The position numbers were made by a program, and so were the translations under genes. The notes under the pieces are model-generated. The model made no database searches. It had not been told where the DNA came from and worked only from the letters and a program-made list of their open reading frames with translations. Of a DNA stretch of 64,000 nt, positions 15,489 through 51,975 are shown one piece after another; within the stretch, counting starts at the first letter, position 1, and each line of letters begins with the position of its first letter. Source of the DNA: Candidatus Gastranaerophilaceae bacterium (GTDB taxonomy: Bacteria > Cyanobacteriota > Vampirovibrionia > Gastranaerophilales > Gastranaerophilaceae); assembly GCA_965647125.1 (NCBI GenBank), contig CBFGCD010000001.1, forward strand, positions 186,449-250,448, written 5' to 3'.

Positions 15489-17579
15489 ATGAAAAATAAT
15501 AAAATTATAAAATCTTGCTTTTGGATATTGCTTATTTATTCTGTTTTTACAATATTAATAATTTTTTTTAAATATCCTTATTTTTACCAAATCAAAAATG
15601 TTTTTTATTCTTTAAATAATATTGATGTTAATTTGACTCTTGATAAAAAAATAAGTGAAAAACCGCTTGTGTGTTTTGATGATTATTGTTCTGATTTGGC
15701 AAGTTATAATAATACGACGGTTTATAATGTTGAATTTTCTGGCTATGAAAACGGTTTGGATTTTTATTTAAAACCTGTTAAAAAATATTTTGTTGCTTAT
15801 CCTTATGATAAAAAAGATGAATTTTTAAATGCTTTTTCGGATTTATATTTATATAGCGGAGATAAAAAATATTACTTTGCAAAAAATGATTTATTAAAAT
15901 TCAAAACTTCAATTGCGCAAATAAAATTTGATTATTCTCAAGACTCTCATTCGACAAAATATTACCGTATCGAGCTTGAGGGAGTTGAATCTAATTATAA
16001 CGGAGTTTTTAATCATTTTATAATATTTGTTTTAAGTTTATTTTTCAATTGTAAATATTTTATCTTTCCCTATCTTGGGCTGTTGGGGTGTTTTTTGATT
16101 TATTCCTTTTATAGAAAAGATAAAAATAACTGTAAAAAAGAAAATTGTAATTCAAGCCGTCATTATTTTTTGTTTTCTTTAATTTTATTTTTGGGTGTTG
16201 TTTTGAGATTTTATAATATTGAAAATCTGCCCTTGTATCCTGATGAAATTTACACAAAAACGGTTGCAATAAGTAGTTTTCAAAATTGTTTTAAAGATCC
16301 CGGGAATCCTCCTTTGTTTTATTTGATTGAGTTTTTATTTTGTAAACTTTTTAATGATTCTAATTTTTCTTTAAGGTTTTTATCTTTTTTATCCGGTGTT
16401 GGATTTGTTTTGGCGGTTTATTTGTTTTTTAAAAGAATTAATAAAAATCTTGCATTGTTAATGATGTTTTTTGCTTCTTTTAATACAATTAATATAATTT
16501 ATTCTCAAAGTGCAAGATGCTATTCTTTGTGCATGGTAATGTGTGTTTTGATAAGTTATTTTTTCTTGAAATATTTAAAAAATTTAAATAAAAAAGATTT
16601 GATTATTTTTTCATTTTTATCAGTTATTGCAATAAATCTTCATTATTTTTGCGTTGTTTATGTTTTTTCTAATTTTGTTTACGGGATTTTTGTTATTTTT
16701 AAAAATAAAAATCACAAAGAATTGCTTAAATTTGTTTTTGTTAATTTGATTTGCTTTTTGTCTTTTGTTCCTTATTTATTAATTTCTTTTAAAAATTCAA
16801 TAAATCAAGATTTTAATTCCTGGATAGAGCCTTTGAGTTTGATTAAGTTAAAAAGTATTATATCTTCTTATTTTATTAATGAAAAAATATTTTTAATTTT
16901 TCTTTTTATTGTTTTTGTTAATTTGATTTTGATATTTATTAATAAATTTAAAATTAATAAGATAAAAAAAGAAGTTTTCCTTTATTTAATTTTTTCAATT
17001 GTTTTTTCGCTTTTTATTATTTTAATTATTTCGATTTTTGTAAAACCTGTTTTGGATAAAAGAATTTTGTTGAGTCTTTACGGTTTGTTTATTTTGCTTC
17101 AGGGTGTTATGATTTCAGGAGTTTTTGAGTGTAATTTATTAAACAATAAAAATTATTTTTTCAAAAATCTTTATTCAATCTTGCTTTTGTTTTTGTTTTT
17201 TTCAATAACACAGGCAGGCGAGTTTAAAATTACTCATAATCTTAACGGTTATTTTTTCTTTATTCAAAATGATATTAAAAATAATGACTATAATAAAAAT
17301 ATTTATGAAATCCATGGGATTGTTATTCAAGATATAAATTTTTTAAAGAATTTTCCCGAAATTGAAAAATTAAGTGATATAAACTGGCATGTTATAGATA
17401 CGCTTACAAAAGATAAAATAGAAAAAATTTCAAAAAAAGATTTAACAAAATCAAACAAAAAAGTAATTTTATATTTAAGCAATTACGGAACAAGTCTTGA
17501 TTCAAATTATTTTATTGAAAAGCAAATAAAAATTTATAAAACAGGAGCAAATAAAAGCGCAAAAGTTGTGTTAGAATAA
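15489..17579 (+). CDS. GT-C fold membrane glycosyltransferase (family 39/83, ArnT/PMT-like) with extra N-terminal module
   Basis: 696 aa, more than 10 TM. First-loop acidic motif LPLYPDEIYT followed by DPGNPPLFYLIEF. Paralogue of the next gene. Confidence 0.65.
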   Translation: MKNNKIIKSCFWILLIYSVFTILIIFFKYPYFYQIKNVFYSLNNIDVNLTLDKKISEKPLVCFDDYCSDLASYNNTTVYNVEFSGYENGLDFYLKPVKKYFVAYPYDKKDEFLNAFSDLYLYSGDKKYYFAKNDLLKFKTSIAQIKFDYSQDSHSTKYYRIELEGVESNYNGVFNHFIIFVLSLFFNCKYFIFPYLGLLGCFLIYSFYRKDKNNCKKENCNSSRHYFLFSLILFLGVVLRFYNIENLPLYPDEIYTKTVAISSFQNCFKDPGNPPLFYLIEFLFCKLFNDSNFSLRFLSFLSGVGFVLAVYLFFKRINKNLALLMMFFASFNTINIIYSQSARCYSLCMVMCVLISYFFLKYLKNLNKKDLIIFSFLSVIAINLHYFCVVYVFSNFVYGIFVIFKNKNHKELLKFVFVNLICFLSFVPYLLISFKNSINQDFNSWIEPLSLIKLKSIISSYFINEKIFLIFLFIVFVNLILIFINKFKINKIKKEVFLYLIFSIVFSLFIILIISIFVKPVLDKRILLSLYGLFILLQGVMISGVFECNLLNNKNYFFKNLYSILLLFLFFSITQAGEFKITHNLNGYFFFIQNDIKNNDYNKNIYEIHGIVIQDINFLKNFPEIEKLSDINWHVIDTLTKDKIEKISKKDLTKSNKKVILYLSNYGTSLDSNYFIEKQIKIYKTGANKSAKVVLE

Positions 17580-17613
17580 TTTTATTAATAAAATAAAATT
17601 AGGGGAGAAAATA

Positions 17614-19752
17614 ATGAAAAAAGATGAAAAAAAAGCTTCAATTTTTGTGTTTTGTTTTTGGATTCTTTTATTTTTTGCTGTTTTTTCTATTTTCAACATA
17701 ATAAAATTTAACTTTTATAATGCGGATGTAAAATATTCACATTCCGTCTTAGAAGAAGCAAGTATTAATTTTACCTTTAAACAAAAAATAAAATTAGGTT
17801 CAAGTTTTATGGTTTGTTTTAATGATGTTTGTAAAAATCCCGAATCTGATTCATTTTTAAATTCATATTATTTAAAATTCAACAAAGATTTTTTTAATTC
17901 GGATTTTTATTCAAAAAAATTATCAAATATTTCTTTTGTTTTTGATAAAAATGATGAAAAATTAATCGAAAACAATCTAAACGATATATATCTTTATGTT
18001 GGAAATCGTGCATTTAATTATCACAAAAAAGATATAAAAAATTTCAAGAAAAAAACCATAAAAATCAAAAAAGATGATTCAAAAAAAGAAAGCGAATTTG
18101 CCGCTATTGAAATTCCTAATGATTTTAAAACAAACTATAAAGGAAAATTGAATCATTTTATAACTTTGTTTTTAAATCTTTTTTATAATCCTTTAATGTT
18201 TTTAATCCCTTATTTTTGGCTGTTTATAGCGTTTTGTATTTATGCTTTTAAAAAAGATGAAATCAGTTTTGGATTTTTTACTGATTTTTTCAATAAAAAG
18301 AAAACTTATTACTCAATTTTCGGTTTAATAATTTTTATGACTGTTTTAACAAGATTCAATCTTTTGACTTATAATCCTTTGTGGTTTGACGAATTATATA
18401 CAAAAATTATTGCGATTGAAAATTTTAAATCTTGTTTTCAAGACCCGGGCAATCCACCTTTGTTTTTCTTGCTTGAATTTTTTGTTTCAAAAATAAATTC
18501 AAGCGACTTTGCACTAAAGCTCGTACCTTGTTTTTTAGGAATTACTCTGATTGTTTTAATTTATTTGCTGTTTAAAAATATAAATAAAAAACTCGCCCTT
18601 TTTGCAAGCTTTTTTGCGTTAATTAATACGATTTTTATCTACCATTCAAAAGAAATAAGAAGCTCGATTCTTTGTGCTTGTTTAATTGTTTTTTCAATTT
18701 ATGCTTTGTTTGAATATTTAAAAAATGGGAAAAATAAAAATTTTGTTTTGTTCTTAATTTCACAGATTTTATTGATAAACACGCATTATTACCTTGCTAT
18801 TCTTGCTTTTTGTAATTTTGTTTATGGCCTTGCGGGTATTTTTGATAATAAGGAAATTAGAAATAAAAAAAATATTATAAAATTTACTATTGGAAATATT
18901 TTTTGCGCTCTCAGTTTTTTTCCTTATCTTTTAATATCTTATAAATCGGCATTAGGAAAAGAATTTAACAGCTGGATTGGAAGCTTTGATAAATTAAAAT
19001 TTTTATATTCAATTAATGAATATTTTATAAATAAATATATATTTTTATTTTTGGCATTTATTGTATTGATAAATTTGATTTTAATATATCTTCCAAAAGA
19101 TAAATTAAAATTAAAAATAAAAACAAATCCAAATTTGGAAAATTTATATATTTATTTAATTTATTTGATAACACTTTTGTTGATTATAATCAGTTTGATT
19201 TCAATTTTAATTAAACCAATTTTTCACAAAAGACTTTTACTATCAATTTATCCTTTAATTTTTCTTATCGAAACAGTTTCAATTGCTTCTGTTTTAGAAT
19301 TTAAAAAACTTGAAAAATTACCTTTAATTCTAAAAGGGTTTTATTCAACAACTTTGTTTTTCATCTGTATGTTTATAACATATCCAATGCCTTTGGTGAA
19401 AATTTGTAAAGTTGATGATTATATGAATTTTATTTTAAACGATGCTTCAAAATATATTTCCAAAGGTTATGAAGTCCATGGGTTTTTAATTGATCATAAA
19501 GAAGTTTTGACTAAATATCCTAAAGTAGAAAAACTTGATATAAATTGGCATATTATCAAAGGGAATAAAGGTGAATATATTACAAAAATAAAAAAAGAAG
19601 ATTTTATTAATCCGAATAATAAAAATCAAAAAGCTGTTTTGTATTTAAATTCAATCGGTGTTGATTTTGAAAAAGCGCTTTTATATAATCCTAACGCCTA
19701 TATAATTTACACAAATTCTGTTGCAAATGCTAAAATAATTTATGATAACTAA
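17614..19752 (+). CDS. GT-C fold membrane glycosyltransferase (ArnT/PMT-like), tandem paralogue
   Basis: 712 aa. NPLWFDELYT and DPGNPPLFFLLEF. Same N-terminal module as the previous gene (VCFNDVCKNPESD, NDIYLYVGN, NYKGKLNHFI). GGGGAG SD. Confidence 0.65.
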   Translation: MKKDEKKASIFVFCFWILLFFAVFSIFNIIKFNFYNADVKYSHSVLEEASINFTFKQKIKLGSSFMVCFNDVCKNPESDSFLNSYYLKFNKDFFNSDFYSKKLSNISFVFDKNDEKLIENNLNDIYLYVGNRAFNYHKKDIKNFKKKTIKIKKDDSKKESEFAAIEIPNDFKTNYKGKLNHFITLFLNLFYNPLMFLIPYFWLFIAFCIYAFKKDEISFGFFTDFFNKKKTYYSIFGLIIFMTVLTRFNLLTYNPLWFDELYTKIIAIENFKSCFQDPGNPPLFFLLEFFVSKINSSDFALKLVPCFLGITLIVLIYLLFKNINKKLALFASFFALINTIFIYHSKEIRSSILCACLIVFSIYALFEYLKNGKNKNFVLFLISQILLINTHYYLAILAFCNFVYGLAGIFDNKEIRNKKNIIKFTIGNIFCALSFFPYLLISYKSALGKEFNSWIGSFDKLKFLYSINEYFINKYIFLFLAFIVLINLILIYLPKDKLKLKIKTNPNLENLYIYLIYLITLLLIIISLISILIKPIFHKRLLLSIYPLIFLIETVSIASVLEFKKLEKLPLILKGFYSTTLFFICMFITYPMPLVKICKVDDYMNFILNDASKYISKGYEVHGFLIDHKEVLTKYPKVEKLDINWHIIKGNKGEYITKIKKEDFINPNNKNQKAVLYLNSIGVDFEKALLYNPNAYIIYTNSVANAKIIYDN

Positions 19753-19762
19753 GGAGAAAATT

Positions 19763-20500
19763 ATGAAAATCGCTGTAATTTCAGATATCCATGCAAATAA
19801 ATCAGCTCTTGAAAGGGTTTTAGACGATATTAAAATTTTTTCACCTGATATAATATTTTGTCTGGGGGATTTAATTCTTGCAGGTTATAACCCTAATTAT
19901 GTTTGTCAAAAAATGTTGGATTTAAAAGATGAATATAATGACGATTTTATTATAATTCAAGGAAATACAGATAAAATGATTGCAAATTGCAGCGAGGATT
20001 TAATCGAGAAAACTAAAAAAGCGTTTCCGTGTATGGGGTATTCATTAGAAGATGATGTTAAAATAACAAATAAAAAATATATCGATTTTGTTAAAAACTT
20101 GAATGAAAAAGAAAAAATCGAAATTAACGGCTTGAAAATCGAACTTGTGCATGGTTCGCCGCGCAAACAAGATGAAAACATTTATCCTGATATGGACAAC
20201 GATGAGGTTGAAAAAATGGTTGATTCGTCTGATGCCGACTTAATTCTTTGCGGACATACACATATACCTTGCGGTTATACTTTAAATTCAGGCAAAACAA
20301 TAATTAATGCAGGCTCTGTCGGGCGTTCTATGACTGAAGATAAAAAATCGGTTTATCTTCAATTAACAATTGATAAAAATGCAAAGTTCTTTTCTGAGCA
20401 CAGGTTTGTTGAATATGATAATAAAATTGTTGCAAATCATATTTTAATGAGAAATTTTAAACATTGTGACGATTTGGCAAAAATGTACCTTAAAGATTAA
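19763..20500 (+). CDS. metallophosphoesterase (YfcE/MJ0936-like)
   Basis: MKIAVISDIHAN, CLGDL, GNTD, LVHGSP, CGHTHIP. ATG 19763 preceded by TAAGGAG. Confidence 0.8.
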   Translation: MKIAVISDIHANKSALERVLDDIKIFSPDIIFCLGDLILAGYNPNYVCQKMLDLKDEYNDDFIIIQGNTDKMIANCSEDLIEKTKKAFPCMGYSLEDDVKITNKKYIDFVKNLNEKEKIEINGLKIELVHGSPRKQDENIYPDMDNDEVEKMVDSSDADLILCGHTHIPCGYTLNSGKTIINAGSVGRSMTEDKKSVYLQLTIDKNAKFFSEHRFVEYDNKIVANHILMRNFKHCDDLAKMYLKD

Positions 20501-36255: not shown

Positions 36256-36329
36256 CGGGACGTGGCGCAGCTTGGTAGCGTACTACCTTGGGGTGGTAGG
36301 GGTCGCAGGTTCAAATCCTGTCGTTCCGA
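36256..36329 (+). tRNA. tRNA-Pro (anticodon GGG)
   Basis: Hand-folded cloverleaf: acceptor CGGGACG/CGTTCCG, D arm GCGC/GCGT, anticodon stem CTACC/GGTAG with loop TTGGGGT, T arm GCAGG-TTCAAAT-CCTGT, discriminator A. 74 nt, CCA not encoded. Confidence 0.9.
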
Positions 36330-36340
36330 TTTTTTATTTT

Positions 36341-36417
36341 CGGGATGTAGCGCAGCTTGGTAGCGCACCGTGTTCGGGTCGCGGGGGTCGCAAGTTCGAA
36401 TCTTGTCATCCCGACCA
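36341..36417 (+). tRNA. tRNA-Pro (anticodon CGG)
   Basis: Acceptor CGGGATG/CATCCCG, anticodon stem CCGTG/CGCGG with loop TTCGGGT, T arm GCAAG-TTCGAAT-CTTGT, discriminator A, CCA encoded. 77 nt. Confidence 0.9.
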
Positions 36418-36446: not shown

Positions 36447-36476
36447 ATTATATAAATTGTATTGCGGGAGTTGAGT

Positions 36477-38489
36477 ATGATAGTTGGTCTTTATCTTCGA
36501 CATATAAAAACATATAAAAATATAAATTTTGTTCCGGTGGGTAATCATAATTTTATAAATTATTTAGGAAAAAACGGAAGCGGAAAAAGTTCAATAATAG
36601 AAGCGTTTGATATTTTTTTTAATGCAGCTGCTCCTGATTATTTAATCAATAAAAGTATAAGTTCAATTTCAAGAAACAGTAATTATCCTTTTTTTGTACC
36701 GATTTTTTTGATTGAAAAAAGTAAAATTGCCACAAGAAACAAAGAAAATTTTAAATTGCTCAGTGATTTATTTTGGAATATTGAGGAAAAAGAAATTACA
36801 AATATTAATCGTAAAACAGGCTCAGAAATTAAGGAATTTTTTAAATTAAGAGATTCAATAAAACAATATAAAGATACTCATTTTTTGGTTATGCTTGGAG
36901 AAACTTCATTCAAAGATGTTTGTGTGCCGTTTTTTCAAAATTATGAAAAATTTAAAAAAGAAATCGGCTATTGCGAGTCAATGCCTGTTGAAGACAAAAG
37001 CGAGGATAATCAAAGCAGCGTTGAGGATGAAAATAAGGAAAGCGAAGAAGAAAAATTTAGAAAGTTTTTAAATGAAAAATTCAGAAGCACTTTAGAAACC
37101 ATTAAAAAAACTTATTCATACGTATATATACCTGTTGAAAGCAGCATAGAAAGTTTTACTAAAATTGAAACAACAAGTATGCAAAAAATCATCGGAAAAA
37201 CATTAAGGGATGAAATTTTACAACTTTTAAACGAAACAAAATTTGAAGATGAGATAAATGATAAGCTGAATAATTACATGGAAGATATTGAAAAAAAATT
37301 AGATGGAGAATATTATTACGATTCAACTAAATCAAATAAAAAATATTTAAAAAACAGCGATTTATTTAATACGATTTTAGAAACCTATTTTAAAATCCGC
37401 GTTTTAAACAAAGGCAACAAAACCAACAATGCAGGTAAAAAAATAAGCGAATTAAGTGCGGGTGAAAAAAGGCAGGCTTTGTTGGATTTATTACATGCTT
37501 TTTTGACAGACGGACAAGAAAGGGAAAAATATACTATAATCGGCATTGATGAACCTGAAAACTCTTTGCATACCGGGCTTTGTTTTGAACAATTTGAAAA
37601 ATTGAAAGAAATTTCAAAAAATTATCAGATTTTTGTAACCACCCATTGGTATGGTTTTTTACCGGCAATCAGCGAGGGGGTGGGGCATTTTTTAAATAAA
37701 ACAAAAGAAGATAAAGTCGAGTTTGAATCTTATGAATTGTGTAATTACAGATCGCAAATCAAACATGATATGGTCCAAAATAAAGGAAAAATGCCGCATG
37801 ATTATCAGCTGAAAAGCATGAATGATTTGGTTCAGTCAATATTTCACTCTATCAGGCATGAAAATCCTTACAATTGGCTTATTTGCGAGGGATTGAGTGA
37901 AAAAATATATTTTGATTTTTTATTTAAGGATGAAATTAAAAACAAAAATCTTAAAATTTTACCAATGGGCGGCCAAAATGCTGTTGTCAGATTATACAGG
38001 TATCTTGCACTTCCTATTGCCGAAATGAAAGATACTCCTGAGTTTAAAGGAAAGGTATTTTGTATTATTGATACTGATAACCAAATTAATGGTAACGATA
38101 TAGGTGATATTAGCACCAATTTAAAAATAAAACGTTTTTTAAACGAAGATGAAAACAACAAAACCGCATTAGTTTTGTTAAACAATGGAAAATATACACA
38201 AACCGAAATAGAAAATGCACTAAATCCGACTATTTTTAGAGAAACATTGGAAAATTTGACAAATGAATCTAAATACAAAATTAATGATGAGCTTGATTTA
38301 ACTAAATTGAAAAATACGGATTTTTCCGCAAGTTTTAACAATTATCAAATTAAGCATTATTTTAATGAAAACAACGGAGAAAATAAAATAAAGTTTGCTG
38401 AAAAATATATCGATATCTTAAAGAATAAAGAAAACATGAAAGAATATATACCTGATTGGGTAAAAGAAATCAAAGATTTTTTTAATTAA
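36477..38489 (+). CDS. OLD-family-like ABC-ATPase/Toprim fusion protein (class-1 OLD-like or fused PARIS AriA-AriB-like); putative defence nuclease
   Basis: ATG 36477 with GGGAG SD. Walker A GKNGSGKSS, long K/E-rich helical insert, LSAGEKRQ, Walker B IIGIDEPENSLH, FVTTHW. C-terminal LICEGLSEKIYF, ILPMGGQNAV, FCIIDTDNQ (Toprim Glu and DxD). Confidence 0.7.
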   Translation: MIVGLYLRHIKTYKNINFVPVGNHNFINYLGKNGSGKSSIIEAFDIFFNAAAPDYLINKSISSISRNSNYPFFVPIFLIEKSKIATRNKENFKLLSDLFWNIEEKEITNINRKTGSEIKEFFKLRDSIKQYKDTHFLVMLGETSFKDVCVPFFQNYEKFKKEIGYCESMPVEDKSEDNQSSVEDENKESEEEKFRKFLNEKFRSTLETIKKTYSYVYIPVESSIESFTKIETTSMQKIIGKTLRDEILQLLNETKFEDEINDKLNNYMEDIEKKLDGEYYYDSTKSNKKYLKNSDLFNTILETYFKIRVLNKGNKTNNAGKKISELSAGEKRQALLDLLHAFLTDGQEREKYTIIGIDEPENSLHTGLCFEQFEKLKEISKNYQIFVTTHWYGFLPAISEGVGHFLNKTKEDKVEFESYELCNYRSQIKHDMVQNKGKMPHDYQLKSMNDLVQSIFHSIRHENPYNWLICEGLSEKIYFDFLFKDEIKNKNLKILPMGGQNAVVRLYRYLALPIAEMKDTPEFKGKVFCIIDTDNQINGNDIGDISTNLKIKRFLNEDENNKTALVLLNNGKYTQTEIENALNPTIFRETLENLTNESKYKINDELDLTKLKNTDFSASFNNYQIKHYFNENNGENKIKFAEKYIDILKNKENMKEYIPDWVKEIKDFFN

Positions 38490-38571
38490 ACATTTTACAA
38501 ATTTTTGGTTCAAAAAATATTTTTATGAGTGTTTTATAATTAAATACAAATAAAACAGAAAGGTTATAAAC

Positions 38572-38786
38572 ATGGATTTCAGGGTAAACAGTTTTTCAAT
38601 CAGACGACCGAATTTTAAAGGAAGCGTTGCTGTCGTTGGATAGACAGAACGGTAATTAACGTTAAAAGTGCAGGTTATGAAGAGCTTGACGAAGCAATTC
38701 AAAAAGAAAAAGAAACTGATTTTTCAAGCAACACTAATCTGCTTGGTGATTATATGACAGGAAAAATGGATAAGGAAGTATTTTAA
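38572..38786 (+). pseudogene. frameshifted small ORF (about 71 codons), unknown function
   Basis: GAAAGG SD 8 nt before ATG 38572. MDFRVNSFSIRRPNFKGSVAVVG stops at 38641. The open frame continues in another phase (WIDRTVINVKSAGYEELDEAIQKEKETDFSS...KEVF). One extra T near 38636 would join them. Confidence 0.35.
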
Positions 38787-38794
38787 TTAAAATA

Positions 38795-39611
38795 TTGCTG
38801 CAAAAATTAAATTCTCATAAATTTAAAACAAATTTCCCAATTTTTTTAATTGCGGGTTTAATTTTCTATTCATTTTTAATTGAGCCCAAAATGCTTCAAG
38901 TCGTTAATTATTCAATTAAAGATTCATCATTATCAGGAATAAAGCTTGTTTTAATCGGAGATTTACACCTTAAACCCAGCGAGGAAAAAAGGCTTTATAA
39001 AATTGTAAATAAAATAAATCTTCAAAACCCTGATGTCGTGCTTTCTGTTGGAGATTTTGTGAACGGACATAGTGAAAAAAAGCACTTTGCCGATTGATAA
39101 AATTGCTAACGAACTTAAAAAAATAAAATCAAAAAATGGCTTTTATACTGTTTTGGGAAATCATGATATTTGGATTAATGAGGATGAAATCACAAGCAGA
39201 TTTGAACAAAGCGGCATAAAGGTTTTGAAAAATGAAAATATTCCTGTAAAAATTAAAGATAAAAACTTATATATTGCAGGAGTTGAGGATTTAACAACAA
39301 AAATTCCCGATGTTGATAAAGCGCTTAATGATGTAAAAAGTTCAACGATATTATTAACCCACAACCCTGACATATTCCCCGAGATTCCCCAAAACGTTAA
39401 TTTAACACTTTGCGGTCATTTGCATGGCGGACAGGTCAGATTGCCGTTTTTAGGCGCTGTTGTTACTCCCTCAAGATATGGCGACAGATATTCAAAAGGC
39501 TTGATTGTAGAAAATAATAAAAAATTAATCGCAACAAAAGGACTTGGAACAAGTATCCTGCCTCTTCGTTTTAATTGTGTGCCTGAAATTGTTGTGATTG
39601 AATTTTTATAA
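38795..39611 (+). pseudogene. YaeI-type membrane-anchored metallophosphoesterase, interrupted by a frameshift in an A7 run
   Basis: Fragments 38795..39097 (LIGDLHL, SVGDFVNGH) and 39072..39611 (VLGNHD, LTHNPD, CGHLHGGQ) together give all the calcineurin-like motifs. The frames join at A7 (39075..39081) if read as A6 or A9. Confidence 0.75.
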
Positions 39612-39666
39612 CTTAAAAATTAACTTTCTTGCAAACTTATAATTTGTGGCTTATTATGTTGTTTGT

Positions 39667-40587
39667 ATGGACTGTAAAAAAAACAGAAGAAATTTTTTAA
39701 AAGGGTTTTTTGGAACTTATCTTGCCTTGAGCAGTTATTTTTCTTTTAAATATTTTACCCAAAGCAAAAACAGCAGCAAAATAATAAACAATACAAAAGA
39801 AAAAGCTTTAAATGTTGTTCAAATTCCAATTGTCTATAATTGTAATTTGAATTGTGCTTATTGTGACCATTTTGCGCCGATTGCGCCTAAATATCAAGTA
39901 AGCGTTGAAAAATTCAGCACAGATTTAGACCGCCTTTATAAAGTTACGCAAGGAAAAGTTAAAACAATCTGGCTTTTGGGTGGAGAACCTTTGCTGCACA
40001 ATAAAATCTGCGATTTAATAAAAATAACATCTTCAAAATTTCAAAATTCAAAAATAGCAATAACAACAAACGGCTTATTGCTGGATAAAATGAATGATGA
40101 ATTTTGGCAGGTTTTAAAAGATAAAAACGTTGAAGTTAATGTTGAAAATTATATTTTAAATAAAAATATTATAAAGACGGATAAAATTTTTCAAAAAGTT
40201 AAGGAATTTCATTGTAATTTAAATATTAATTTTCCAAAATATGAATTTAGAAAAGCAAGTTTATCAAAAAAGCCAAAATATGACAAAAATAAAAGATTTA
40301 GTGCCTGTAAATGTAAACAATGGCCGATTTTTGATGATGGAAAATTTTATTGCTGTGCAACAATAAACGGGGTTGAAAAATTTTTCAATAAAAAATTTCC
40401 AGATAATAAAATTCCGATTTCGTCTTGTGATATTTTAGATTCATATCAAATTAATTCAATTGATGAAATTATAGAATTTTATCAAAAACCTAAAAATATG
40501 TGTGCGCATTGCGGATATTTTCAAACAAAACCTTGGAAACTATCGCAAAATAATATTTATGAATGGTTTGAAAAAAGCGGGGAATAA
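39667..40587 (+). CDS. radical SAM protein with twin-arginine-type N-terminus and C-terminal Cys cluster (paralogue A)
   Basis: MDCKKNRRNFLKGFFGTYLALSSYFSFKYF; CX3CX2C in IPIVYNCNLNCAYCDHF; GGEPLLH; C-terminal Cys ACKC, YCC, MCAHCG. ATG 39667 chosen by analogy with the paralogue (track: GTG 39646). Confidence 0.75.
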   Translation: MDCKKNRRNFLKGFFGTYLALSSYFSFKYFTQSKNSSKIINNTKEKALNVVQIPIVYNCNLNCAYCDHFAPIAPKYQVSVEKFSTDLDRLYKVTQGKVKTIWLLGGEPLLHNKICDLIKITSSKFQNSKIAITTNGLLLDKMNDEFWQVLKDKNVEVNVENYILNKNIIKTDKIFQKVKEFHCNLNINFPKYEFRKASLSKKPKYDKNKRFSACKCKQWPIFDDGKFYCCATINGVEKFFNKKFPDNKIPISSCDILDSYQINSIDEIIEFYQKPKNMCAHCGYFQTKPWKLSQNNIYEWFEKSGE

Positions 40588-41540
40588 TGAAAAGGAGAAA
40601 TTTTTTAAAAGGCTTATTCACTTCATACGCAGCAGTTTCAACGTATTTTTCTTTTAAATATTTTAATGAAAAAAATGTTGAAAAGCCTTTTGATAATAAA
40701 TCAAAGGAAGATGATGAAATTAAAAATGCGATTGACAAAAACGCTAAATTTCTTAACATGGTTGAAATTCCGATTGTTTATCATTGTAATTTAAATTGTG
40801 CACATTGTGACCATTTTTCTTCGATTGCTCCAAAATACATCATGCCTGTTGAGGTTTACGAAAAAGATGTTAAAAAACTTTCGCAAATCACAAAAGGAAA
40901 ATTAAAAGAATTAATAATCGTTGGCGGCGAACCTTTTTTGCATGATAAAATATCCGAAATTATGAAAATATCAAGAAAATATTTCCCGAAAACAAGAATT
41001 GAAATTCTGACAAATGGAACTTTGCTTGAAAAACAGCCTGACGAGGTTTTTCTAACTGCTAATAAAGAAGATGTGGGAATTTATATAAGTTATTATCGGA
41101 CAGGTAAAAAGCTTTTTGATTTTGAAAAAATTACTGAAAAAATTGATAAATTTAAAGTTAAAATAAGAATAAGCTATCCAAAATTTGAGTTTCAATTAAT
41201 GAATCTTGAAAAGACAGCAAAACACGACATCAAAAAACGCTACACTCCTTGTTATTCAAAACTATGGCCTATTTTAGACAACGGTAAATTTTATGTGTGT
41301 TCGACTGTTAACGGTGTTGATAAATTTTTTAACAGAAAATTTGAAAATGATAAAATCCCTTATTCAAACGATGATGTTTTAGATATTCATAAAATTTCAA
41401 CACTTGACGAGTTATTAGATTTTTATTCAAAACCAAAAAAAATGTGTGCATATTGTAATTATTATATTTCCGATAAAGCACAATGGCAAAAAGCTCGCTT
41501 CAGCCCTTATGAGTGGCTAAAAAAGCTCCCGAAAGCTTAA
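40587..41540 (+). CDS. radical SAM protein with twin-arginine-type N-terminus and C-terminal Cys cluster (paralogue B)
   Basis: MKRRNFLKGLFTSYAAVSTYFSFKYF; IPIVYHCNLNCAHCDHF; GGEPFLH; C-terminal PCY, YVCS, MCAYCNY. Start overlaps the paralogue A stop (TAATG). Confidence 0.8.
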   Translation: MKRRNFLKGLFTSYAAVSTYFSFKYFNEKNVEKPFDNKSKEDDEIKNAIDKNAKFLNMVEIPIVYHCNLNCAHCDHFSSIAPKYIMPVEVYEKDVKKLSQITKGKLKELIIVGGEPFLHDKISEIMKISRKYFPKTRIEILTNGTLLEKQPDEVFLTANKEDVGIYISYYRTGKKLFDFEKITEKIDKFKVKIRISYPKFEFQLMNLEKTAKHDIKKRYTPCYSKLWPILDNGKFYVCSTVNGVDKFFNRKFENDKIPYSNDDVLDIHKISTLDELLDFYSKPKKMCAYCNYYISDKAQWQKARFSPYEWLKKLPKA

Positions 41541-41579
41541 CAATTTGCGCTGTAAATTTGTTTTGTATATAATTATTCA

Positions 41580-42611
41580 ATGAACAATTTCAAAAAAAGA
41601 GTTCTTGTTTCCGGATATATCGGTTTTTCTAATTTTGGTGATGAAGCGATATTTTACGCTTTATCAAAGCATTTAAAAATGCTCAATTATAAAACAAGCG
41701 TATTGTGCAATAATCCTTTAAAGGTTAGTGCTGAATATGGTGTTGAAGCTTTTTATTATAAAAATTTAATTAATGTGTTTAGCTCAATTTTAAAAAACGA
41801 CATTTTAATTTCCGGAGGCGGAAGCCTTTTACAAAACAAAACCAGTAATTTCAGCCTTTTTTATTATCTTTTTGTAATTTTTTCGGCTAAATTGTTTTTT
41901 AAAAAAGTAATAATTTTTTCACAGGGAATTGAACCAATTAATGGCAAATTTCCGTTGTTTTTGACAAAAATGATTTTAAATGGGGTTAAATTTATCTCGG
42001 TTCGTGATTTAAAAAGTCAAAAACTGTTAGAAAAATATAAAATCAAGTCCGATTTAACATCTGACCCTGTTTATTCACTGGTTGAAGAAATTAAGCCCTC
42101 TTTTCAAAAAAAAGGATTATTAATTCAATTAAGAGAGTTTAATAATATTAATGAAAAGTTTATTGATGATTTAGCAAAAAGCGTTTTTAAAAATTATTCA
42201 AAAACCGATATAAGTGTTTTTTCTTTTCAGGATGAATATGATAAGAAAATTTGCGAAAAATTTATTGAAAAATTGGCAAAATTTAATCTAAAAGCACAAT
42301 TAATCTGCAATAAAACAATAAATGAAACAATCAATATAATCAATGACCACGAATTTATGTTGTCTGCAAGGCTTCATGGGTTAATTGTTTCAAATGCTTT
42401 AAAAACAAAGACTTTTGCTCTTTCTTACGATGAAAAAATAAAAACATTATCAGAAGAGTTAAAGATTGAAAATATTGATATTTTTAACTATAAAAACGAT
42501 GAGCTTGATTTGAAACTAAATAATTTTTTTAATTCAAATAATGTAAACCCTCCTGTGCTCTACAGAAAGTTTGATTGGAGTGTTTTGGACGGGTATTTGT
42601 CAAAAGTTTAG
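41580..42611 (+). CDS. csaB: polysaccharide pyruvyl transferase CsaB
   Basis: VLVSGYIGFSNFGDEAIFYAL, ISGGGSLLQNKTS, SARLHGLIVS are typical of the CsaB family. Confidence 0.8.
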   Translation: MNNFKKRVLVSGYIGFSNFGDEAIFYALSKHLKMLNYKTSVLCNNPLKVSAEYGVEAFYYKNLINVFSSILKNDILISGGGSLLQNKTSNFSLFYYLFVIFSAKLFFKKVIIFSQGIEPINGKFPLFLTKMILNGVKFISVRDLKSQKLLEKYKIKSDLTSDPVYSLVEEIKPSFQKKGLLIQLREFNNINEKFIDDLAKSVFKNYSKTDISVFSFQDEYDKKICEKFIEKLAKFNLKAQLICNKTINETINIINDHEFMLSARLHGLIVSNALKTKTFALSYDEKIKTLSEELKIENIDIFNYKNDELDLKLNNFFNSNNVNPPVLYRKFDWSVLDGYLSKV

Positions 42612-42628
42612 TATATTTGGGAGAATAA

Positions 42629-43312
42629 ATGGCTAATAAATCTGTAATTGAAAGATACAACAAAGATAAAAAATTTGTTTTAATTTCAAGTCTTGTTATT
42701 GTTCTTTTTCATATTATCCGCTTTTTTTACAGGTGTAAATGTGTTAATTATCCAAAAGAAAAATGTGTTTTTGCCCTTTGGCATGCTCATCAATGCGGGG
42801 TTTTTTCCTGTAATCTAGAGCGCAAAACAGCAATCATGGTTTCAAATTCGAAAGACGGCGAAATAATCTCGCGCGCAGCAAATGCAATGGGGGTTGAAAC
42901 TGTACGCGGTTCACACAATCGGGGAGGCGCTAAGGCAACTTATGAATTGATTAAAAAAATCAAAGACGAAAATTGCAATGGTGCTTTGACAATTGATGGA
43001 CCAAAAGGTCCAAAAAGAATTGTTAAAAAAGGAATAATCGAAATTGCAAAAATGGCAAATGTTCCAATTGTTCCTGCGGTTTGGTGGAGCAAGGATATAA
43101 CTTTTTTAAAATTCAAATCATGGGATGAATTTCGATTTCCTTTAATAGGAACAAGGCTTGTTATGCTTTTTGGCGAACCGATTTACCTTAGTGAAAATCC
43201 CGATGAAGAAGAAATTGAACAAGTAAGATGTAAAGTCGAAAAAAGTTTGAATGAACTTTATTGTGATGTTAAGAAAAATTTCGATAAATATTTAAAAAAT
43301 AAACCCTGCTGA
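42629..43312 (+). CDS. DUF374 lysophospholipid-acyltransferase-family protein
   Basis: FALWHAHQ, MVSNSKDGEIISRAANAMGVETVRGS, TIDGPKGPKRIVKKGIIEIAKMANVPIVP. Confidence 0.75.
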   Translation: MANKSVIERYNKDKKFVLISSLVIVLFHIIRFFYRCKCVNYPKEKCVFALWHAHQCGVFSCNLERKTAIMVSNSKDGEIISRAANAMGVETVRGSHNRGGAKATYELIKKIKDENCNGALTIDGPKGPKRIVKKGIIEIAKMANVPIVPAVWWSKDITFLKFKSWDEFRFPLIGTRLVMLFGEPIYLSENPDEEEIEQVRCKVEKSLNELYCDVKKNFDKYLKNKPC

Positions 43313-43336
43313 AATTTATTTAGCAGGGTTTATTTG
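43301..43336. terminator. bidirectional terminator hairpin between the DUF374 gene and tpiA
   Basis: AAACCCTGCT-11 nt-AGCAGGGTTT. The left arm includes the DUF374 stop codon. T/A-rich flanks on both sides. Confidence 0.65.
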
Positions 43337-45707: not shown

Positions 45708-46550
45708 ATGGATAAATCATATTTAATAGCTCTACTATTTTCAACTCTTGCAGGTCTTTCAACGGTCATTGGCGGATTTGTCACTTTTTTTATTAAAGAA
45801 AATTCGCTCAAATTTCTTTCTTTTGGATTGGGATTATCTGCAGGTGTTATGCTTTTTGTTTCTTTGGTTGATTTATATCCTGATGCCTGTGAAATGATTA
45901 AAAATCAAATGGGAAATGAATTTCTCTGGCTTGCGGTTTTGTTTTTAACAATCGGAATGCTTTCGGCGATTTTGATTGATTATTTTATTCCCGATCATAT
46001 TCAAGCTTCAATGTTTACAAAGCAATTGGGAGCAAACGAAAAACATATTGACAGCACAGATTGTGTCTGTAATGAAAATGCTTGTATTTCAATCGGGAAA
46101 ATAAAAAAAGCAGGGCTTTTGACAGCGATTGTTGTTGCGGCACATAATTTCCCCGAGGGGCTTGCAACATTTTTTGTTACAACGCAAGATACCGCAATCG
46201 GATTAGGGATTGTTGCGGCGATTGCAATTCATAATATCCCTGAGGGTATGGCGATTTCTATTCCTGTTTATCAAGCAACTCATTCAAAAAGAAAAGCATT
46301 TCTATATTCTTTTTTATCAGGAATGGCAGAACCTGTTGGCGGAGTTTTAGGATTTTTGATTATAAGAACTTTGTTTCCTGATTTATGCATAGGGATTTTA
46401 TTTGCTCTTGTTGCAGGAATTATGACCTATATTTCGCTTGACACATTATTACCCCTGTCAAGAGATTACGACACAGGACACTATTCAATCAGCGGCGTTG
46501 TTGTGGGAATTATGCTTATGGGTTGTGCGCTTATGATTCTTTCAAATTAA
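45708..46550 (+). CDS. zupT: ZIP-family zinc transporter ZupT
   Basis: 8 TM. AAHNFPEGLA and AIHNIPEGMA metal-binding motifs. Confidence 0.85.
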   Translation: MDKSYLIALLFSTLAGLSTVIGGFVTFFIKENSLKFLSFGLGLSAGVMLFVSLVDLYPDACEMIKNQMGNEFLWLAVLFLTIGMLSAILIDYFIPDHIQASMFTKQLGANEKHIDSTDCVCNENACISIGKIKKAGLLTAIVVAAHNFPEGLATFFVTTQDTAIGLGIVAAIAIHNIPEGMAISIPVYQATHSKRKAFLYSFLSGMAEPVGGVLGFLIIRTLFPDLCIGILFALVAGIMTYISLDTLLPLSRDYDTGHYSISGVVVGIMLMGCALMILSN

Positions 46551-47932
46551 CCCAGCATTTTTAATGATTTAGAAAAATTATTTCCGCGGGATTTTAGTTT
46601 AATTAAAGAATCAATTTCAAAAGCTTTTTTGAGAAGATAATTTGGTCTTAGATAATAGCTTTTGTTTAACTTTGCGCAATGTGCCAAAATTTCTTCGCGG
46701 CTTAGGGCGAAGCTTCGCGGGTTTAAAAGCGCGTAAGGATTTTCGGGGTTTGGTTCTGCTAATCTGTTTTTGATGAGATAATCAAAATATTTTGTTTGCG
46801 AATATGCAATTGTGGGTTTAAAAATTGCACTGTGGGTATTTAATTCTTTTGCAAAATTATATGTTTCATTGATTGTTTCTTTTGTTTCCCAGGGGAAGCC
46901 AATGTTGAATTCTGTTTGAATTTGAATTTTTGCATCAGATAAAAGCGCGACTGTTTCTTTTATTTCTTCAAGATTGTTTTTCTCGTTCATTCTTTCTAAT
47001 ATAGCTTCGCTTGCGGATAAAACATTTAAAATAATAAAATTGCATCCTGCTTTTTTCATTATTTCAATTGTTTCAAAATCAAGAGAATCGGCTTTTGTTC
47101 TTGTTGAAAAATTAATTCTTAAATTATTTTCAAGAATTTGTTTTGATAATGTATCAACCCAATTGTTGTCAAAATTAAAAAAATCTGCTTCAAAAAAGAA
47201 ATTTTTAATTTCATATTTTCTAACACAATCCTTTATTTCGTCAATTATAAGGCTTGTGTTTTTGAGACGGATTAATTTTTCTTTTTCAAATTTATTTCCG
47301 CGGTAAAAATCAAATTGATTATCGCCCGAAGAAACAACAATCGAGCTTTGTATTTGTTTTGTGAGTGGATTTATGTATAAATTATTGTTAACTAATTCCC
47401 TGTCTAAAACAGGCAGATTATCAAGCGAGGTTTCTTTGATTCTGTCTTTTGTTGAGGAGATTTTGTTATTGATTTGATATGTAATTCCCTCAATTTCTTT
47501 TAAATCATTATATTGTATAATTTCATCAAATGCCCCCTCGATATCTCCTCTTAGTGCGATATCAATTTGGGGATATTTTTGCATTATTGTGTATGAATTG
47601 TAATTGAAAATTTCACCTTTTGCAATTATTACAATATCTTCAAATAAATCTTCGTTTTGAGATAAAATCGACAAATCTTCTTCGAAATTTTCTCTTGTAA
47701 CATTAATAAGCAGAAAATCAGGCTTAAACATTCTTAAATCTCTTAAAAAATCATAAAGAGACAGATTATCTTTAGAATAATCGCAAAATTTTGTTATATA
47801 TCCTCTTTTTTTAGCAACGGTTGATAACATCATCATATCAACAGGCAAATTATTTTCATGTTGATTTAATTTGTTTGAATTCGGAGGATATATGAAAAAA
47901 ATTTTTTGTCTTTTTATTTTTTTTGTTTCCAT
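46547..47932 (-). CDS. B12-binding-domain/radical-SAM-like protein lacking the CX3CX2C cluster motif
   Basis: Class-B rSAM layout, but the cluster block reads SSIVVSSGDNQFDFYRGN in place of SRGCPxxCxFC. Flanking blocks are retained (SLIIDEIKDCVRKYEIKNFFFEADFFNFD, AGCNFIILNVLSAS). Confidence 0.6.
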   Translation of the reverse strand: METKKIKRQKIFFIYPPNSNKLNQHENNLPVDMMMLSTVAKKRGYITKFCDYSKDNLSLYDFLRDLRMFKPDFLLINVTRENFEEDLSILSQNEDLFEDIVIIAKGEIFNYNSYTIMQKYPQIDIALRGDIEGAFDEIIQYNDLKEIEGITYQINNKISSTKDRIKETSLDNLPVLDRELVNNNLYINPLTKQIQSSIVVSSGDNQFDFYRGNKFEKEKLIRLKNTSLIIDEIKDCVRKYEIKNFFFEADFFNFDNNWVDTLSKQILENNLRINFSTRTKADSLDFETIEIMKKAGCNFIILNVLSASEAILERMNEKNNLEEIKETVALLSDAKIQIQTEFNIGFPWETKETINETYNFAKELNTHSAIFKPTIAYSQTKYFDYLIKNRLAEPNPENPYALLNPRSFALSREEILAHCAKLNKSYYLRPNYLLKKAFEIDSLIKLKSRGNNFSKSLKMLG

Positions 47933-50145: not shown

Positions 50146-51081
50146 ATGAAAACAAAAGAAGAGCTTTTAAAATTATATAATTTGGATTTAGATGAACTTT
50201 TAAAAATAGCATCTCAATTTACATTCCCAGAGTTTGAATTTTGCTCGTTAATATCCGCACGCACGGGCAAATGTTCGCAGGATTGTAAATATTGCGCTCA
50301 ATCAACAAGATATAACACAAATATCAAAACGCATCCTTTGGTTTCAATTGAAGAAGTTAAAAAAGCGGCAATTGAATCAAAAAACAACGGCGCGATAAAT
50401 TTTGCAATCGTAACATCGGGAAAAACACCCGATGAAGCAAAGGATTTTGATGAATTATTACAAATGATTAAAGAAATTAACGCGCTGGGGTTGAAGTCTT
50501 GCGCCAGTATTGGAATTTTAAATCAAAATCAGGCACAAAAATTAAAACAAGCGGGTTTGGTGCGTTTTCATCATAATATCAATACTTGCAGAAGTTATCA
50601 TAACAAAATTTGCTCAACCCACAGCTATGAAGACAGAATCAACACCTGTAAATTTGTAAAGCAGGCAGGTATGGAACTTTGCTCGGGGGTAATTATCGGG
50701 ATGGGTGAAACAATTGAACAAAGAATCGAAATGGCGCTTGAACTGGCACAAATTGAACCTAATAGCATCCCTGTTAATATTTTAACGCCTATTAAAGGAA
50801 CTCCTTTTGAAAATTATGGCGATAAAATCGATGAGGAAAATATTTTGCGAACGATTGCGATTTTTAAAATCGCCAATCCGAAAGCTTCAATTCGCCTTGC
50901 AGGAGGCAAAAAAGCAAGGTTGAGCGGAGAAAATATTGAAATTTTGATGAAAAATTGTGTTGATAGCGCAATTGTCGGGAATTATTTAACAACAACGGGA
51001 TTTTCTGCTTCAGATGATGAAAAAAAAGTAATTAAAGCAGGAAAAACCCTTAAAACGCTTAAAGCTTTTCAGGCTTTTTAA
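50146..51081 (+). CDS. bioB: biotin synthase
   Basis: CSQDCKYCAQS radical-SAM motif, FAIVTSG, CASIG, NTCRSY, CSGVIIGMGE. Confidence 0.9.
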   Translation: MKTKEELLKLYNLDLDELLKIASQFTFPEFEFCSLISARTGKCSQDCKYCAQSTRYNTNIKTHPLVSIEEVKKAAIESKNNGAINFAIVTSGKTPDEAKDFDELLQMIKEINALGLKSCASIGILNQNQAQKLKQAGLVRFHHNINTCRSYHNKICSTHSYEDRINTCKFVKQAGMELCSGVIIGMGETIEQRIEMALELAQIEPNSIPVNILTPIKGTPFENYGDKIDEENILRTIAIFKIANPKASIRLAGGKKARLSGENIEILMKNCVDSAIVGNYLTTTGFSASDDEKKVIKAGKTLKTLKAFQAF

Positions 51082-51975
51082 AATTTGATAAAATAAGTCC
51101 GAAAATAACAAGAATAATTCCCGAAATTGAAAAAACATCAAGTTTTTCACCCAATATCAAAACGCTTGAAACAGCACAAATTACGGGAACAAGATAAATA
51201 TAAATGCTTGTTTTTACCGCTCCTAATTTTTTAAGTGAATAATTCCACCAGATAAAACAAAAAGCGCTTGCACCCAAACTTAAATATAAAAGATTTAAAA
51301 AATTAACAGGGTTTAAAAATGTTTCAAAATTTAAATTATTCCCTTGGATTTTTTCAAAATAAATCAAAAACGGAATCATTAAAATTATTCCGTGAAAAAA
51401 AACCTTTTTGTAACTTGAATTGTAGAATATCTGTAGTTTGAAATTTTTTTAATCAAAATTGAATAAATTGCCCAGATGAAAGATGCGCAAATTGCCAGAA
51501 AATCGCCCAGAGGGTTTATTTCTATTTTTGTGTTTTTAAAACTTATTAAATAAATTCCAATTATTGCAGTTAAAAATCCTAAAAAGAAGTTAAGATAAAG
51601 TTTCTCGCGATTCTTTTTTCTGAAAACAAAATAACTCAAAATCCCGACTGCAAAAGGAGCACATGACATAATGACTCCGACATTTGCAGCATAAGTAAAA
51701 CAAAGCGCTATGTTTTCAAAAAGATAATAAAGTGTTATTCCAAAAAAGCCTGCAAAAATAAACAATAATTCTTTTTTAAAACCATTAATTTTAATTCCTC
51801 CGGGACAAATCAAAAATAAGACGAAAAATCCGATTAAAAACCTCAAAAAAAGAATTTCTACAGGATAAAAATCTTTTAGCAAAATTTTTGTTGAAACAAA
51901 CGTCATTCCCCAGATAAAAATCGTTATAATTGCGCTTATGTGTGCGGGTATATTTTTTGATGGCTTATTGTTCAT
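51059..51975 (-). pseudogene. EamA/DMT-family transporter interrupted by a frameshift in a homopolymer
   Basis: Fragments 51385..51975 (5 TM) and 51059..51379 (4-5 TM) join as ...TKRFFFHGIILMIPFLIYF... if the A8 run at 51395..51402 (T8 on the coding strand) is 9 nt. Confidence 0.7.

Follow-up and report, generated by a model that had tools for sequence, protein, structure and literature searches.

The radical S-adenosylmethionine (SAM) enzymes, a superfamily among the largest known, are regarded as strictly cytoplasmic because they depend on SAM and a low-potential reductant. The closest structural counterpart of the enzymes described here is SpeY (7WZV/7WZX/7X0B), a twitch-type dehydrogenase of spectinomycin biosynthesis with a partial TIM-barrel core that carries a CX3CX2C motif and a C-terminal domain that holds one auxiliary cluster. 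SpeY is cytoplasmic, belongs to an actinomycete antibiotic pathway and has no signal peptide. Also similar in fold are the radical SAM alcohol/Cys-Ser dehydrogenases BtrN and anSME, which are themselves cytoplasmic and lack a twin-arginine (RR) signal; anSME matures exported sulfatases and so is also linked to the envelope. We analysed a 64,000-nucleotide stretch (hereafter the window) of a Candidatus Gastranaerophilaceae genome (GenBank assembly GCA_965647125.1, contig CBFGCD010000001.1, positions 186,449 to 250,448), in which two adjacent genes, rSAM-A and rSAM-B, encode predicted radical SAM enzymes with the SpeY-like fold, directly ahead of genes for the polysaccharide pyruvyl transferase CsaB and a DUF374 protein. 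Unlike SpeY, BtrN and anSME, the window enzymes have N-termini that resemble signals of the twin-arginine translocation (Tat) pathway. An export-like tag is unexpected here because radical SAM chemistry is thought to need cytoplasmic SAM. The reading that we favour, with moderate confidence and from sequence comparisons, is that the enzymes are exported by Tat in a folded, cluster-loaded state and would modify an envelope glycan while tethered at the periplasmic face.

Among Tat-exported Fe-S proteins, the hydrogenase small subunits, NrfC/DmsB-type ferredoxins and Rieske proteins carry RR-x-F-L-K and a mild hydrophobic (h) region and have their clusters inserted before export, as we propose for the window pair. 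Unlike radical SAM enzymes, they are electron carriers without a diffusible cytoplasmic co-substrate. The Rieske protein is kept at the membrane by an uncleaved signal anchor, and Tat lipoproteins of Streptomyces and haloarchaea are kept there by a lipobox. Within the lineage of the window itself, an aldo/keto-reductase+Fer4 lipoprotein of Gastranaerophilales (MKRREFI...LLSGC↓G, the arrow following the lipobox Cys) and a polyferredoxin share the N-terminal design and the Fe-S content, but have other catalytic domains and are encoded beside tatA-tatC, unlinked to the window locus. NarG is a cytoplasmic enzyme with a vestigial twin-arginine N-terminus that is bound by NarJ; unlike in the RR-type radical SAM set, the NarG motif is a degenerate one, with no relatives that carry a lipobox.

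A tandem pair of putative twitch-type radical SAM enzymes

The gene rSAM-A (39667..40587, + strand) encodes 306 aa from its ATG, or 313 aa from an alternative GTG start at 39646 (39646-40587), and rSAM-B (40587..41540, + strand) encodes 317 aa. The TAA stop codon of the former (40585-40587) and the ATG of the latter overlap by one base (TAATG). The products are 44% identical over 311 columns (BLASTP, E=2e-101), in agreement with the original prediction, made by eye, of tandem paralogues of about 306 and 317 aa with roughly 45% identity and a TAATG overlap. The exact rSAM-B protein is found in two NCBI metagenome-assembled genomes (MAGs) and several Logan assemblies, with identical gene order.

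Both proteins pass the Pfam cut-off for Radical_SAM (PF04055; 48.8 bits for rSAM-A and 50.2 bits for rSAM-B vs 29.5) and also that for Fer4_12. The CX3CX2C motif, which provides the ligands of the radical-SAM [4Fe-4S] cluster, reads CNLNCAYC in rSAM-A (residues 59-66; 39841..39864, + strand) and CNLNCAHC in rSAM-B (residues 67-74; 40785..40808, + strand), and is invariant in 29/29 family members (alignment A1). The seven Cys of rSAM-B (C67, C71, C74, C222, C238, C287 and C290) are all invariant across these 29 members, including the four C-terminal Cys that had been noted together with CX3CX2C at the outset. Invariant in the same alignment are GGEP (G113, G114, E115, P116) and TNG. Lacking in both proteins is a match to the seven-Cys SPASM domain (PF13186, E<=0.01), only four C-terminal Cys being present, and the Pfam scan gave no match to an RRE domain. 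The NCBIfam equivalogs (MoaA, QueE, viperin, HxsC, Tes and others) score at best 45-54 bits against cut-offs of 180-850. Thus, the family has no name.

The AlphaFold (AF2) model of rSAM-B (predicted local distance difference test score, pLDDT, 89.4; predicted template-modelling score 0.80) comprises, in order, a helix (residues 2-29), a disordered stretch (~30-55, pLDDT ~45), the radical-SAM core and a small C-terminal domain. The last of these corresponds to a predicted twitch domain (41217..41486, + strand) with C222, C238, C287 and C290 as candidate auxiliary-cluster Cys. The top structural match is SpeY 7WZV (Foldseek E=3e-15, template-modelling score 0.67-0.71, 269-281 columns), followed by viperin, anSME (7e-7), BtrN (E ~1e-6) and EpeE, and the family profile also ranks SpeY first by sequence (E=1.4e-24). 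The window enzymes are ~17% identical to SpeY and share its core and its single-cluster C-terminal domain; anSME, with a full SPASM domain and two auxiliary clusters, differs in this respect.

Given the four invariant auxiliary Cys and the SpeY/BtrN-like fold, with no SPASM match, we assign rSAM-A and rSAM-B to the twitch type and not to the SPASM type; their motifs suggest that they are catalytically intact. Of the twitch/SPASM-like auxiliary cluster first proposed, the twitch part thus stands and the SPASM part falls away. Each enzyme would bind two clusters, a SAM-cleaving [4Fe-4S] cluster and an auxiliary one with Cys at every ligand position; the spacing of the auxiliary Cys (C-x15-C-x48-C-x2-C) resembles that of BtrN. 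SpeY/BtrN-type dehydrogenases oxidise a secondary alcohol of a sugar or cyclitol with the help of SAM, and the fold of the window enzymes points, as a lead only, to the oxidation or epimerisation of a sugar-like alcohol by radical chemistry.

The RR N-terminus and its conservation

The Tat-like segment of rSAM-A, MDCKKNRRNFLKGFFGTYLALSSYFSFKYF (39667..39756, + strand), is conserved in the subclade and reads N-R-R-N-F-L-K, with RR at residues 7-8 (nt 39685-39690). That of rSAM-B, MKRRNFLKGLFTSYAAVSTYFSFKYF (40587..40664, + strand), is modelled as one helix (residues 2-29) and reads K-R-R-N-F-L-K, with RR at residues 3-4 (nt 40593-40598). The R-R-N-F-L-K part of the S/T-R-R-x-F-L-K consensus that had been proposed is therefore present; the residue before RR is N or K and not S/T. 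In each protein 15 uncharged residues follow the RR motif, where a TATFIND-style rule asks for an uncharged, moderately hydrophobic h-region of >=13. A six-frame scan of the window for RR.F[LIVMF] returns six matches. Two lie at the N-terminus of open reading frames (ORFs) of >300 aa, namely rSAM-A and rSAM-B, and the other four sit within stop-to-stop segments of 40-52 aa.

Homologues do not begin downstream of the RR motif, an outcome that would have spoken for a mis-called start. Among the first 53 homologues, the closest 14 and two more distant ones start with M-x-R-R-x-F, and R3, R4 and F6 are invariant in 15/15 close homologues (alignment A2). The pattern x-R-R-x-F-[LIF] occurs at residues 2-15 in 49 sequences, down to ~30% identity, and is followed by 14-25 uncharged residues and then by a hypervariable linker. 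In each of the 25 RR N-termini examined, RR lies within residues 2-7, 14-25 uncharged residues come next, and CX3CX2C is reached after a further 17-43. Among the 150 best cluster representatives, 20 have RR and an h-region and one more has KR. A neighbour-joining tree of the catalytic core only places 47/49 RR sequences in two RR-only clades (31/31 and 16/16), drawn mainly from Gastranaerophilales; with its midpoint rooting, this tree is compatible with one or with two origins of the RR signal.

It is very improbable that the RR is untranslated or a chance match, or that the enzymes are maturases of ribosomally synthesised and post-translationally modified peptides (RiPPs) with an unnoticed precursor. 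Some room for such an artefact is left by rSAM-A, which could begin at GTG 39646 or at ATG 39667 and lacks a visible strong Shine-Dalgarno sequence upstream. Against it, rSAM-B has no alternative start codon between RR and the core, with GGGGA 5-6 nt before its ATG, and RR-x-F is conserved in the 49 divergent sequences and tracks the catalytic-core phylogeny. We rejected a mis-called start on the protein-level conservation of RR-x-F and the coherence of the core tree. Judged by its conservation, the RR N-terminus is inherited and genuine, and not a start-codon artefact.

The wider family is large and mostly without the motif. A profile search of 1.84 billion cluster representatives yields 1688 clusters at E<=1e-30, most of whose members have no RR, and a one-genome-per-species scan finds at least 569 loci that encode relatives. 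Relatives that are full-length and include the N-terminus come from Candidatus Gastranaerophilales (Melainabacteria); partial ones come from gut/termite Spirochaetes, Lachnospiraceae, Bacteroidia, Endomicrobia, Campylobacter and others. For ten RR-clade clusters the only name given is 'MoaA/NifB/PqqE/SkfB family radical SAM enzyme'. Non-RR relatives often bear N-terminal extensions that resemble GT2 glycosyltransferases or Rossmann folds, as read by eye with no Pfam run. RR (L010) and non-RR (L021) members coexist in one MAG (Lapin-002 bin108), which fits two different cell locations. We thus see here a large, unnamed, glycan-linked twitch family (~1,700 clusters) that has no characterised member. 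The pairing, in its RR members, of twitch radical SAM chemistry and a signal of the Tat or lipoprotein kind is undescribed in the literature searched, and no curated model names the family.

In many RR paralogues a lipobox (LTAC↓S, LSAC↓T, FAGC↓K or LGAC) closes the h-region and is followed by a polar tether. Examples are MNRRDFIKSCACCFSMLMLTAC↓SRR in L035, a locus of a rumen Gastranaerophilales MAG, ...GLMLSAC↓TNDDNKEN (P0062), ...CAFFAGC↓KKDNY (P0058), ...FCFGC↓SSQ (P0085) and LGAC (P0004). These paralogues favour export, because lipid modification makes sense only after export. Two paralogues, L008a (18.0 bits) and L009b (21.4 bits), pass the cut-off of the Tat-signal model TIGR01409 (16.7 bits). 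The h-regions of some paralogues (in L008, L035 and L105, and P0057-P0059, P0085, P0090 and P0159) contain three or four Cys (e.g., GACTCCGC, SACACAGC, LTCACAFFAGC), more than one lipobox requires.

Downstream of the helix, rSAM-B has a charged low-complexity linker (residues 27-58; 40665..40760, + strand) that is hypervariable, contains indels and is predicted to be disordered. The modelled succession of helix, disordered hypervariable linker and folded domain is a layout that suits a tethered exported domain.

Proposed export and its alternatives

Under the favoured export reading, folding and Fe-S cluster loading would occur in the cytoplasm, TatC would recognise the RR, and the TatAC translocase would carry the protein over the inner membrane. 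The N-terminus would consist of an RR-x-F-L-K n-region, a weakly hydrophobic h-region of 15 residues and a flexible tether of 20-40 residues. Attachment may be through a lipid on the lipobox Cys in the lipobox paralogues, and through a retained N-terminal helix in the window pair. The tethered enzyme could then oxidise or epimerise, by radical chemistry, a sugar of an envelope glycan in a pathway common to the apparently co-transcribed CsaB and DUF374 proteins. Outside the cytoplasm, SAM might be pre-bound and regenerated in each cycle, be used for a single turnover, or be supplied by a transporter. Translocation, final topology, substrate, and the delivery of SAM and electrons are all steps that we infer. 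Under this extracytoplasmic reading, the occurrence of fast-diverging paralogues in tandem arrays of 2 to 5 would reflect diversification of surface glycans.

If export is correct, radical chemistry takes place on the outer side of the inner membrane. One would then have to ask what supplies SAM, whether SAM acts catalytically and by what route electrons pass over the membrane. Periplasmic radical SAM chemistry, were it shown, would be categorically new. We hold only tentatively the fuller claim that these are the first extracytoplasmic radical SAM enzymes, that is, Tat-exported holo-enzymes acting on assembled envelope glycan with electrons from a polyferredoxin and with SAM that is either co-exported and regenerated or supplied by a transporter. 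The subject also bears on the envelope biology of an uncultured, non-photosynthetic sister lineage of cyanobacteria that lives in animal guts.

The order Gastranaerophilales encodes tatA and tatC. In L035, TatA (PF02416, 1.8e-15) and TatC (PF00902, 4.5e-56) are encoded ~2.2 kb downstream of the RR-lipobox family member, with a membrane-anchored Flavodoxin_4 protein and a NapH-like polyferredoxin in between, and >120 TatC clusters, some of them named Gastranaerophilales TatC, are 57-100% identical to the TatC of this locus. Other genomes (L086-L089) have a cluster of aldo/keto-reductase+Fer4, polyferredoxin, tatA, tatC, purE and larC. This conserved cluster lies at L086 1236-4720 and L035 10803-13950, with Flavodoxin_4 in place of the reductase in L035. 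The aldo/keto-reductase+Fer4 protein begins with MKRREFIINSALMAGGIALLSGC↓G, the same design as the rSAM N-termini, and the NapH-like polyferredoxin has an internal KRRDF and a transmembrane segment ahead of its ferredoxin domains. Taken together, these sequences point to an extracytoplasmic Fe-S electron chain in Gastranaerophilales, and the polyferredoxin is a plausible trans-membrane electron route.

Several observations weigh against export. Radical SAM turnover normally uses up SAM, a cytoplasmic metabolite, and depends on a low-potential reductant. In the RR clade CX3CX2C, GGEP and TNG, which serve SAM binding, are all still invariant, so its enzymes have not become SAM-independent. Our literature search found no extracytoplasmic or Tat-signal radical SAM enzyme, and nothing relevant for Gastranaerophilales with twin-arginine or for SpeY/7WZV. 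By its sequence, the window pair seems to be the least signal-like of the RR set. Its h-regions (GLFTSYAAVSTYFSF) had been called mildly hydrophobic, which is borne out by a mean Kyte-Doolittle value of 0.88-0.94 over the 15 uncharged residues of each; residues with aromatic or hydroxyl side chains (Y, F, S, T) abound in these weakly hydrophobic stretches. PF10518 (TAT_signal) gives 12.4 and 12.5 bits for the pair vs 22.7 and covers RRNFLKG only, and TIGR01409 matches neither protein. Both models are insensitive in Gastranaerophilales, since a canonical-looking Tat lipoprotein encoded beside tatAC fails both as well. The pair has no lipobox and no clear AxA, with A-V-S↓T and A-L-S↓S at the conserved position.

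The conservation profile points the same way. Mean pairwise identity within the subclade is 64% for the N-terminal 25 residues (RRNFLKG...YFSFKYF), 51% for the core, 54% for the twitch domain and 14% for the linker. Conservation of an N-terminal segment above that of the catalytic core is atypical of a cleaved signal, and suggests that the mature protein retains it as an anchor or a tag for specific binding.

The evidence from the Tat genes is divided. Presence of the machinery had been named as a check on the original prediction, and tatA and tatC are indeed common in Gastranaerophilales. A tblastn search with TatA/B/C of E. coli and TatAd of B. subtilis as queries gave no match to tatA/tatC in the 64-kb window, L035 being the sole match among the loci searched, and none of the TatC proteins P0319, P0221, P0216 and P0228 was placed in GCA_950097155.1 or GCA_948742005.1, which are MAGs with the rSAM locus. 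The flavodoxin, polyferredoxin and tatAC genes of L035 do not recur beside family members in the other loci examined; we therefore treat this adjacency as a single, anecdotal case. Other RR genes are solitary among housekeeping genes. Finally, the cytoplasmic face is where CsaB and GT2 domains act, which makes cytoplasmic ancestral substrates of the family probable.

Several of these points also favour the main alternative, a cytoplasmic enzyme with a Tat-like tag modelled on NarG and its NarJ-bound N-terminus, which we consider possible. The untranslocated helix would then be an in-plane or peripheral membrane anchor, or a tag for a chaperone or partner, and would keep the enzyme at the cytoplasmic face of the inner membrane, near lipid-linked glycan intermediates, CsaB, SAM and reductant. 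Such a location agrees with the cytoplasmic nature of SAM chemistry and the full retention of SAM motifs, with the greater conservation of the 25-residue segment than of the core (64% against 51%) and its weak hydrophobicity, missing lipobox and scores below the Tat model cut-offs, and with the cytoplasmic action of CsaB and of the GT2-like domains of the relatives, which is established knowledge. Basic, amphipathic N-terminal extensions are present on many non-RR members too, and a role of the N-terminus in membrane association may thus be ancestral. A cytoplasmic tag leaves unexplained why the TatC-recognition consensus R-R-x-F-[LIF]-K is invariant in 49 sequences of a low-GC lineage, and why, in many paralogues, the h-region ends in a lipobox Cys with a polar tether behind it. 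No gene for a chaperone of the NarJ/TorD type was seen beside any locus. By the positive-inside rule, a membrane-spanning helix behind a positively charged N-terminus would leave the C-terminal domain outside. Were the tag reading true, the pair would be a new case in which a Tat motif has come to serve as an anchor or chaperone tag.

A further alternative, which we regard as unlikely, is that the enzymes are exported yet do not consume SAM outside over multiple turnovers. They might act in the cytoplasm and be exported afterwards, possibly with a partner; they might be exported with bound SAM that is used once or regenerated, as lysine 2,3-aminomutase regenerates SAM; or they might be mainly periplasmic Fe-S redox proteins. 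Tat exports folded, cofactor-loaded proteins, as is well established, and the auxiliary cluster of SpeY/BtrN dehydrogenases can accept the substrate electron, so the need for an external reductant could be small. The genes for the NapH-like polyferredoxin and an Fe-S lipoprotein beside tatAC also fit. No conserved partner gene lies next to the RR genes, and the strict conservation of the SAM motifs argues against a purely electron-carrying role.

Gene neighbourhood, a possible glycan link and other window features

The two rSAM genes are followed by csaB (41580..42611, + strand; TIGR03609 226.3 bits, cut-off 213.1, and PF04230) and by the DUF374 gene (42629..43312, + strand; PF04028, 81.4 bits), both assignments upholding what had been read from the sequence. 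A strong terminator-like hairpin with a 17-bp stem (43297..43335, + strand) lies between the DUF374 gene and a convergent TPI gene. Because the intergenic gaps are short (55, 39 between rSAM-B and csaB, and 17 bp) and the hairpin follows DUF374, the four genes look like one transcription unit, of which DUF374 is apparently the last gene. A promoter-like site, TTGCAA-17-TATTAT, just 5' of rSAM-A (39629..39657, + strand) is a weak consensus match, and such sites are not enriched over shuffles in the region around rSAM-A. Rfam finds two tRNAs only in the window, and no SAM riboswitch. With gaps of only 17-55 bp there is no room for a precursor-peptide ORF, consistent with the earlier remark that none flanks the pair. 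A RiPP maturase was rejected on these gaps, on the lack of SPASM and RRE domains and on the closest fold, which is that of a sugar dehydrogenase.

The order rSAM-rSAM-CsaB-DUF374-TPI-FliA is kept in another species (L007). Between L007 10001-12909 and window 39667-42611 the rSAM proteins are 64% and 50% identical and CsaB is 59% identical, whereas the identity is 87-89% for DUF374, TPI and FliA. Relative to these flanks, the rSAM pair and CsaB appear to evolve fast, a pattern as in surface-glycan loci. In L008 (8057-12662) a tandem array of five RR paralogues stands beside two genes for PMT_2 (GT-C) membrane glycosyltransferase-like proteins. Three RR paralogues in L009 (9962-12804), a locus of the same MAG as L008, are syntenic with a trio in L105 (6084-8885), next to genes for LptF/G, prephenate dehydrogenase, agmatinase and PGI. 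The clade-B RR genes P0101, P0106 and P0062 have no recurring neighbours. Fusions and neighbours are together suggestive of a link between the family and glycan biosynthesis, and that link is loose. The envelope-glycan substrate first proposed fits the synteny, the GT2-like extensions of non-RR relatives and the PMT_2 neighbours to the same loose degree.

At least 10 RR-type rSAM copies occur in one MAG, BRZ_BN bin55. The L008 array adjoins genes that look, by eye and with no family search, like those for a phage terminase and portal. The window itself has tandem paralogous PMT_2 (GT-C) polytopic proteins (15489-20500; 696 and 712 aa; 21-23% GC), with a second metallophosphoesterase gene downstream; a PMT_2 pairing recurs beside the L008 RR-rSAM array.

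Directly 5' of rSAM-A is a metallophosphoesterase gene (38795..39611, + strand), both halves of which match Pfam Metallophos. A single additional A in a poly-A run (~39075-39081) breaks it into ORFs 38795-39097 and 39072-39611. In L001-L004 the gene is an intact ORF of 239 aa, with a 1-nt gap in the blastn alignment. The additional base stems either from an error in sequencing or from slippage.

Further upstream is a 2.2-kb insertion (36461-38641) that the locus L002, identical in other respects, lacks. It contains a gene for an OLD-family ATPase/TOPRIM protein (36462-38489; AAA_15 and AAA_21, with OLD-like_TOPRIM at 19.7 bits, below the cut-off of 23.2) and is directly preceded by the two tRNA genes (36256-36329 and 36341-36414). 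We regard this insertion as a probable mobile or defence island of small size. Elsewhere in the window are genes for a class-B (B12-binding) radical SAM protein (46547-47932) and BioB (50146-51081), and an ORF for an EamA-family transporter (51385-51975) that is 196 aa long in the window vs 305 aa for the gene in L001.

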